Source: Escherichia coli | GTDB taxonomy: Bacteria > Pseudomonadota > Gammaproteobacteria > Enterobacterales > Enterobacteriaceae | Assembly: GCF_002854065.1 (NCBI RefSeq) | Contig: NZ_CP024147.1 | Direction: 5' to 3' (one strand) | Length of the DNA: 64,000 nucleotides | Part shown: positions 5,674 to 5,882 of the stretch, one piece after another | Position numbering within the stretch: the stretch's first letter is position 1 | Layout of the letters: each line of letters begins with the position of its first letter | Made by a program: the position numbers and the translations under genes | The notes under the pieces: model-generated | The model's input: only the letters and a program-made list of their open reading frames with translations | What the model was told of the DNA's origin: nothing | The model's database searches: none

Positions 5674-5882
5674 GTTTTTTCCTGTGAAAATTTAATTCTG
5701 AAATAATGTCTAATATTGTATTCCAGATAGCACAGGAACTGCACGTCATAAGTGCTAAATATAGTCTTAAAATTATAAGAATGTGACTTTACACATTTTT
5801 AATTAGTCGTTAATCTAATAGGAAAGAGATTATAATATTTATATTAGGAATATATAATGTGAAATCATATATTCCAGTGATA
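5674..5882 (-). promoter_or_regulatory. AT-rich leader/promoter region of the sinH-sinI-ratA cluster (candidate nucleoid-protein silencing region)
   Basis: 209 bp of markedly AT-rich sequence (runs such as tttaattctgaaataatgtctaatattgtattcc and ttataatatttatattaggaatatataatgtgaaatcatatattcc) between yfgJ and sinH; composition is typical of horizontally acquired promoters. No specific site identified. Confidence 0.4.

Follow-up and report, generated by a model that had tools for sequence, protein, structure and literature searches.

A probable H-NS/StpA-silenced, activator-dependent promoter region upstream of the adhesin gene sinH in Escherichia coli

Introduction

The closest described counterpart of the region studied here, the 209-bp AT-rich gap between yfgJ and the adhesin gene sinH in a 64-kb stretch of Escherichia coli contig NZ_CP024147.1 (the whole stretch is called the window below), is the promoter of iatB, the sinH orthologue of E. 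coli SMS-3-5. The iatB gene was not expressed under any laboratory condition, and 12 of 12 independent up-mutants of an iatB promoter-lacZ fusion drive leuO (Goh et al. 2019, PMC6714894). When overproduced from pLeuO, LeuO, which is known to antagonise H-NS, raised iatB mRNA about 15-fold in SMS-3-5, with the protein still undetectable (PMC6714894). The gene order of SMS-3-5, der-yfgJ-gap-sinH-sinI-adhesin, is that of the window. Its gap (locus 15359-15567) also measures 209 bp, has 23.9% GC and carries TACAAT 33 nt after the position of a conserved block (Block A) that we describe below. However, it is 68% identical to the gap of the window, its Block A is degenerate (AATAATGATATATTTAT), and a dyad resembling the LeuO binding core has four mismatches there, as opposed to two here.

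A further counterpart is the sinH/c3032 locus of E. coli CFT073, for which the occupancy by H-NS and StpA has been determined by chromatin immunoprecipitation sequencing (ChIP-seq; Hustmyer et al. 2022, PMC9765446, Data set S1, sheet 1E 'H-NS bound gene'). The orthologous gap has 208 bp and 24.5% GC, and both flanking genes are bound by H-NS and StpA. It differs from the gap of the window in sequence (69% identity); the locus is not discussed in that paper, and the ChIP values are given per gene, not per base.

An AT-rich, H-NS-bound and LeuO-responsive promoter of an adhesin operon is of a well-known kind, and the facts on H-NS and LeuO have already been published for other alleles. The cas, leuO, bgl and yjjQ-bglJ promoters are like the sinH region in that they are AT-rich, inactive in the laboratory and induced by overproduced LeuO, the last two as observed for the SMS-3-5 orthologue. 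The sinH region contains a candidate dyad close to the LeuO core of cas and leuO. It is not kept in all taxa and overlaps a hairpin. The GAD box of gadA/gadBC has a distal RcsB half-site TTAGGA and a proximal ATTTA-like half, and lies at about -50 to -76 of an H-NS-repressed promoter (Castanie-Cornet et al. 2010, PMC2887963). We liken it to the candidate site Block A, with two differences: the halves of Block A lie 3 bp closer together, and Block A is kept in five genera while GadE occurs in E. coli and Shigella only. Within the intimin/invasin family, fdeC/eaeH is described as an H-NS-controlled inverse-autotransporter gene in enterohaemorrhagic E. coli. Yersinia inv is controlled by H-NS/YmoA on one side and RovA on the other. 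These genes have an AT-rich, H-NS-silenced promoter that needs a counter-silencer, as we propose for sinH; they stand at other loci with other regulators, and the likeness is one of gene family and mode of control.

In this study, we analysed the composition, conservation and regulatory signals of the gap. We propose, with a probability of about 0.7, that it is the control region of sinH, sinI and a ratA-like adhesin gene, made up of a hairpin, an H-NS/StpA patch, an activator-dependent sigma-70 promoter and a short leader. Our confidence in each specific site is lower than in this overall picture.

A TpA-rich gap with a conserved, predicted promoter module

The gap lies between the yfgJ stop codon (5883-5885) and the sinH ATG (5671-5673), which agrees with the location and length given in an earlier note on this DNA.

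5674-5882, minus strand: yfgJ-sinH intergenic region, 209 bp, 24.9% GC, 31 TpA steps

This GC content compares with 52.5% for the whole window, 45.8% for yfgJ, 52.1% for der and 48.1% for sinH, so that the gap is indeed far more AT-rich than the flanking genes, as the note had stated. Of the 209-bp segments of the 64 kb, only 0.05% are as GC-poor. GC profiling placed the minimum of the 64 kb (23.9% in 209 bp) at 5683, inside the gap, and the gap is the most AT-rich of about 27 intergenic gaps in the window. The runner-up is a 66-bp gap with 28.8% GC (15223-15288), just upstream of pbpC (15289-17601).

We found that the TpA density is the highest in the window, where the mean count is 8.7. The gap also contains 12 runs of at least five A or T bases, the longest of 18, and only four homopolymer runs of A or T with at least four bases. 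A wedge model gave a mean curvature at the 66th percentile and a local maximum of 6.9 degrees per turn at 5765. With few homopolymer tracts, ordinary curvature and many TpA steps, the gap is therefore TA-step-rich, flexible DNA and not phased A-tract DNA. The earlier description of the gap as full of A/T tracts holds for mixed A/T runs but not for homopolymer tracts, and the curvature profiling that it called for gave an unexceptional result.

To describe the gap, positions were counted on the minus strand from the yfgJ stop; the window coordinate equals 5883 minus the position. The promoter elements are as follows.

5755-5772, minus strand: Block A, TTTTAAGACTATATTTAG, positions 111-128, about -64 to -47 from the predicted start; candidate activator site with left half TAAGA
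5715-5720, minus strand: predicted -10 hexamer TACAAT, positions 163-168, of the family TAnAAT
5706-5710 (about 5708), minus strand: predicted transcription start region, placed from the -10 position; 5' untranslated region (5'UTR) of about 35 nt
5680-5683, minus strand: Shine-Dalgarno sequence AGGA, read from the sequence, 6 nt upstream of the sinH ATG

Block A has the family consensus TTTARGAaTwtATTTAG, in which ATTTA is invariant in 19 alleles. Compared with seven distant gaps, no other 17-mer is as well conserved: its mismatches add up to 26, whereas the lowest sum in 60 shuffles was 32. The pattern TNRGA-N4-ATTTAG occurs a single time in the 64 kb. A TAnAAT hexamer follows Block A after 33 or 34 nt in 15 of 17 non-redundant alleles, where chance predicts 1.6% per allele. 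The hexamer of the window, TACAAT, is near TATAAT, and its family variants are TACAAT, TAAAAT, TAGAAT, TATAAT and TAAACT, with the T, A, A, A and T invariant or nearly so in the gap alignment. The sequence between Block A and the -10 hexamer diverges, and the distance from the -10 hexamer to the ATG varies from 31 to 62 nt. At the 17-bp spacing expected of a -35 hexamer we found TGCAGT, and no hexamer is conserved there in the gap alignment. Taken together, the sequence predicts an activator-dependent sinH promoter with a 5'UTR of about 35 nt.

Since the predicted 5'UTR is so short, calling the whole gap a leader, as was done before, is probably a misnomer, and the remainder would be promoter and upstream DNA. 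It had also been stated that no site for a specific regulator could be identified; two candidates can now be named, namely Block A, which precedes a conserved -10 hexamer by 33-34 bp, and a dyad resembling the LeuO core. We found no published description of a Block A/-10 module at fixed spacing in Escherichia, Salmonella, Citrobacter and Pseudocitrobacter. A promoter called by a generic scan with TATATT inside Block A as its -10 hexamer was rejected: the invariant ATTTAG does not resemble TAnnnT, as the TAnAAT hexamer does. A 50-codon open reading frame (5597-5749), with its start in the gap and its remainder overlapping sinH in another frame, was treated as spurious.

The order yfgJ-gap-sinH was found in five genera, namely Escherichia (E. 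whittamii, Escherichia sp. E1V33, E. albertii and Escherichia sp. MOD1-EC7003), Salmonella (S. enterica, including subspecies salamae), Citrobacter, Pseudocitrobacter and Superficieibacter. Across these genera the gap has 200-234 bp and 22-34% GC; in Salmonella it is longer (333-345 bp) because an insert resembling a repetitive extragenic palindrome (REP) follows yfgJ. The mean column identity of a 12-sequence gap alignment is 52%. Thus, AT-richness and, outside Salmonella, length are kept while the sequence diverges, which points to selection on a regulatory region and not to a decaying compositional relic.

The AT-richness had been read as a signature of horizontally acquired DNA, which is only partly right. 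All 209 bp are missing from island-free E. coli K-12, because the xseA and yfgJ stop codons overlap there. But the island genes have 48-52% GC (sinH 48.1%, sinI 52.1%, the ratA-like part 52.4%), comparable to core genes, and the gap is AT-rich in all five genera. In this case, extreme AT-richness is a trait kept in a regulatory region, and not a remnant of foreign DNA.

H-NS and StpA at the orthologous loci

The AT content far above average over about 200 bp and the high density of TpA steps (31 in 209 bp) are features expected of a region silenced by H-NS and StpA. In CFT073, the H-NS occupancy of sinH was 0.116. Loss of stpA left it at 0.112, loss of hns lowered it to 0.063, and loss of both lowered it to 0.033 (PMC9765446). 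The strongest H-NS/StpA signal at the locus was on c3032 (216 nt), with an H-NS occupancy of 0.407 (PMC9765446). We assigned c3032 to yfgJ by its position and length. StpA was found on the same genes, with 0.100 on sinH and 0.367 on c3032. For scale, c0021 has 0.437 on this occupancy scale and an immunoprecipitate/input ratio of 36.7 in sheet 1A (PMC9765446). The list of bound genes runs from yfgH to sinH, c3032 and yphF; sinI and the ratA-like gene are not in it (PMC9765446). This pattern is consistent with a local H-NS patch centred on the AT-rich gap and reaching a few hundred bp each way.

The published ChIP data that the earlier note had proposed to consult thus show binding to both flanking genes, at an orthologous locus whose gap is 69% identical to that of the window. 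By analogy with CFT073, this allele is probably silenced by H-NS. The reading of H-NS silencing is supported by the ChIP-seq in CFT073 and by the silent, LeuO-induced promoter in SMS-3-5, in both cases on an orthologous allele. The supplements of a Salmonella cyclic di-GMP/H-NS paper do not contain sinH.

Several observations weigh against a silenced, activator-dependent promoter at this place. The evidence on H-NS, StpA and LeuO all comes from orthologous gaps that are 68-69% identical to this one. The transposon screen in SMS-3-5 recovered no hns insertions (PMC6714894), and c3032 continued to be called bound when both hns and stpA were mutated, with an H-NS signal of 0.090 and a StpA signal of 0.183 (PMC9765446). 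Part of the c3032 signal may therefore be antibody background or come from a third H-NS-like protein. We found no match with up to 2 mismatches to the high-affinity H-NS motif TCGATAAATT in 5674-5882, and strong intrinsic curvature is lacking, as described above. Both the nucleation motif and strong curvature are common at silenced regions but not obligatory. The spacing of 33 or 34 nt between Block A and the -10 hexamer is lost in Superficieibacter and Escherichia sp. MOD1-EC7003. Finally, the generic promoter scan gave two weak sites, no more than in shuffled sequences, and missed the TACAAT promoter because no -35 hexamer is present.

Candidate regulatory sites and the hairpin after yfgJ

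The palindromic LeuO core spans 19 bp, with 7-bp halves separated by 5 bp, and is near-identical at cas and leuO (Fragel et al. 2019). We re-derived it from K-12 as ATATTCA-TACTG-TGAATAT (cas) and ATATTGA-TTTGG-TGAATAT (leuO), and found a similar dyad in the gap, near a hairpin that follows yfgJ.

5835-5853, no strand assigned: LeuO-core-like dyad ATATTCC-TAATA-TAAATAT, 2 mismatches from ATATTCA-N5-TGAATAT, positions 30-48 after the yfgJ stop
5847-5875, minus strand: hairpin GGAATATATGAT-TTCAC-ATTATATATTCC, positions 8-36, 7 nt after the yfgJ stop

The dyad has a shuffle p of about 0.013, and the best site stands at the same position in most Escherichia alleles; the Citrobacter gap contains a perfect match. 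Two sites with up to 2 mismatches from the core were found in the 64 kb, and one of them is this dyad. The other, TTATTCT-CTTTC-TGAATAT (10855-10873), lies in the hisS-ispG intergenic gap.

The hairpin belongs to a 66-nt stretch with a folding energy of -12.5 kcal/mol (z -3.2). Hairpin folding better than shuffles was also found in 4 of 8 other alleles (z <= -3.1). CFT073 (z -3.5), Citrobacter (-28.8 kcal/mol, z -6.6), two Pseudocitrobacter and C. freundii have hairpins of unrelated sequence at this position, which in Salmonella is taken by the REP-like element. In two Salmonella loci (gaps 2156-2500 and 2168-2500) this piece after yfgJ is GC-rich (…CTTATCCGGC…), and the AT-rich promoter-proximal part contains Block A, then 33 nt, then TATAAT. 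A terminator scan found no intrinsic terminator after yfgJ; the hairpin is AT-rich, with 2 GC pairs, and has no U-tract. This suggests that the hairpin is a candidate 3'-end or insulating structure of the der-yfgJ transcript and not a canonical terminator. An Rfam scan of 5300-6300 at a permissive E-value returned only GEBRO (14 bits, against a gathering score of 285; E 0.2).

Heteromers of RcsB with GadE or BglJ act from sites centred at -50 to -80 on H-NS-repressed promoters. The pattern TNRGA-N4-ATTTA is present in 16 of 19 alleles of Block A, with a predicted centre at about -55 that depends on the predicted start. Definitions for an RcsB homodimer and for the RcsAB box (TaAGaatatTCctA) fail because the right half is always ATTTA, never TCYNA (19 of 19 alleles), and no site with up to 1 mismatch was found in the gap. 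The consensus sequences of other regulators were compared with Block A by eye. PmrA (YTTAAK-N5-YTTAAK), PhoP (11-bp period), CpxR (GTAAA-N5-GTAAA), Lrp, Fur, IHF, marbox, SlyA and sigma-E gave a worse fit than the RcsB half-site or the wrong spacing, and the GGA motifs of CsrA are lost in E. coli alleles.

Alternative explanations and proposed mechanism

Two readings concern the protein that would open the promoter. Block A could be a composite site for RcsB and an auxiliary partner of the FixJ/NarL type, the heteromer being the physiological activator or counter-silencer; this would refine the proposed picture, and we treat it as a lead with the odds against it. In its TTAGGAA form, the left half equals the flhDC half-site that RcsB contacts in the crystal structure of its complex with DNA; in its TAAGAAT form, it contains TAAGAA, with which the RcsAB consensus TaAGaa|tatTCctA begins. 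The lone variable position of the left half is A or G (10:9), as in the consensus TN(G/A)GA, and the 5-4-5 geometry is that of the RcsAB box. The predicted centre falls within the range of BglJ-RcsB (-52 to -79) and the RcsB/GadE footprint (-50 to -76), and the K-12 GAD box TTAGGATTTTGTTATTTAAA is like Block A save for a 3-nt indel. However, the full consensus TN(G/A)GAN4TC(T/C)NA is not present, with ATTTA as the second half in 19 of 19 alleles, and we estimate that an 8-bp degenerate half-site is expected by chance about 0.4 times per AT-rich gap. Neither GadE nor BglJ is conserved across these genera, and no mention of sinH was found in the RcsB literature examined. The wider proposal that Block A is the docking site of a conserved core-genome activator, likely RcsB with a partner reading ATTTAG, and that this rather than LeuO is the physiological switch that turns on sinH in the face of H-NS silencing, is still more doubtful. 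Alternatively, LeuO may act directly through the dyad, about 130-145 bp upstream of the predicted start, and displace H-NS there. The activation of the orthologous SMS-3-5 promoter by LeuO overproduction, the similarity of the dyad to the core common to cas and leuO, its rarity in the 64 kb, its kept position in most Escherichia alleles and the perfect match in Citrobacter argue for this. Yet SMS-3-5, where the effect was demonstrated, has 4 mismatches at the dyad, and it is missing from Salmonella and C. freundii, where sites elsewhere in the gap have 3-5 mismatches. In several taxa the dyad is at the tip of a GC-clamped hairpin of 16-18 bp, a structure that resembles a transcript end more than a protein site. 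The LeuO effect is also possibly indirect, and we consider direct action at the dyad to be a possibility with the odds well against it.

The other two readings do without a regulated promoter of this design. One is control of sinH after initiation by an RNA encoded in the gap, either a small RNA or a structured leader of the riboswitch or thermosensor type. The whole gap does fold better than shuffles (z -3.5), and the increased mRNA without detectable protein in SMS-3-5 leaves room for a post-transcriptional block. But the hairpin after yfgJ supplies a large share of the fold energy, the remainder is unsupported by conservation, the sequence between the blocks is not conserved, Rfam gave no family match, and the predicted 5'UTR has about 35 nt only, which makes RNA-based control very unlikely. 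Even less credible is a neutral junction, shaped by mutational bias or left over from foreign DNA, with sinH read through from der-yfgJ. All the genes run in the same direction with no canonical intrinsic terminator after yfgJ, and promoter-like hexamers arise by chance in AT-rich DNA. Such a junction would not account for an AT content kept in five genera and a gap length kept outside Salmonella while the sequence diverged, for Block A and the -10 hexamer at fixed spacing, or for a hairpin after yfgJ in most taxa. Moreover, der is essential and expressed, yet the iatB fusion was silent, and H-NS is found on the region in CFT073.

We therefore prefer the silenced, activator-dependent promoter. 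In the mechanism that we propose, the AT-rich hairpin after the yfgJ stop probably serves to mark or to stabilise the der-yfgJ transcript at its 3' end. From a nucleation site of about 100 bp of TpA-rich DNA, H-NS and StpA would extend into yfgJ and the 5' part of sinH and hold the promoter silent in the laboratory. The promoter itself would be of the sigma-70 type, with the -10 hexamer TACAAT (5715-5720), no usable -35 hexamer, and the 17-bp block at 5755-5772 (about -64 to -47). Its transcript would begin about 35 nt before the sinH coding sequence and use AGGA as ribosome-binding site. For sinH to be expressed, the silencing would have to be lifted (overproduced LeuO does this), an activator would have to bind Block A, or both. 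The composition, conservation and geometry of the gap are direct observations. H-NS/StpA occupancy and the LeuO response have been published for orthologues, while the transcription start, the roles of Block A and of the hairpin, and the carrying over of the CFT073 ChIP result to this allele are inferences.

Gene context and origin of the island

The der, yfgJ, sinH, sinI-family and ratA-like genes are all on the minus strand, and sinH is the first gene downstream of the gap.

end at 6161, minus strand: der, upstream of yfgJ
5883-6098, minus strand: yfgJ, upstream neighbour of the gap, 71-aa double zinc ribbon protein (Pfam Zn_ribbon_6)
3493-5673, minus strand: sinH, intimin-like inverse autotransporter of 726 aa (Pfam IAT_beta, E 1.6e-105; RefSeq annotation of identical loci)
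2472-3437, minus strand: sinI-family gene (annotation of identical loci)
1-2181, minus strand: 5' part of a ratA-like giant adhesin gene, 739-codon open frame (annotation of identical or near-identical loci)

The ratA-like gene continues beyond the start of the window. A review credits Shea 2022 with the co-transcription of sinH and sinI. Strain 100416 and PapRG-06-5, both Gambian isolates, have identical or near-identical loci, and O145:H28 Shiga toxin-producing E. coli and a few others match at 95-99% identity; the locus, from identical to 95-99% forms, is present in 48 of 5,426 complete genomes. The ratA-like gene is annotated as an incomplete pseudogene in strain 100416 (locus 1-4782), whose gap is identical to that of the window, and is intact, with 6.4 kb, in PapRG-06-5. 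sinH has been reported in every examined E. albertii genome.

The yfgJ gene of the window is 99.5% identical to that of Escherichia sp. E1V33 and 81% to that of K-12. It forms a divergent tract (5883-7370) with the 3' 1.2 kb of der. This 3' part of der has 92% identity to K-12 and CFT073 and 96.9% to Escherichia sp. E1V33, whereas the 5' 330 nt of der are 100% identical to K-12. The sinH allele has 99% identity to Escherichia sp. E1V33 and 97% to E. whittamii. Since yfgJ, the 3' part of der and sinH resemble E1V33 and the 5' end of der resembles K-12, recombination with a crossover inside der seems to have brought in the island from a donor near Escherichia sp. E1V33 and E. whittamii.

Within E. 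coli, yfgJ is unusually polymorphic, with at least three allele classes that are just 55-86% identical (100-nt windows or whole gene), while the adjoining core genes are 97-100% identical. In C. freundii and Citrobacter sp. S-77 (loci 2077-2500 and 2067-2500), yfgJ is directly upstream of sinH, but der is replaced, and genes for a major facilitator superfamily transporter and a GFO/IDH oxidoreductase precede yfgJ. The linkage of yfgJ is kept with sinH rather than with der in these two. Fragments of sinH that are 90-92% E. coli-like, in a contig of a Collinsella metagenome-assembled genome and in a Rhizobium wenxiniae contig, are most likely contamination or misbinning.

Significance

SinH is a vaccine antigen in development against extraintestinal pathogenic E. 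coli and contributes to fitness in the urinary tract. For native sinH, no laboratory condition is known that gives detectable protein (PMC6714894). The degenerate Block A and the weak LeuO-like dyad of SMS-3-5 may bear on the undetected IatB protein of that strain. The Block A/-10 module is a modest, testable addition to what has been published. An H-NS/StpA patch around an activator-dependent promoter would offer three handles for finding the inducing signal, namely the -10 hexamer, the conserved block and the candidate LeuO dyad. These promoter parts may also help to predict which sinH alleles can be expressed, given that the strain studied so far, SMS-3-5, has a degenerate block.

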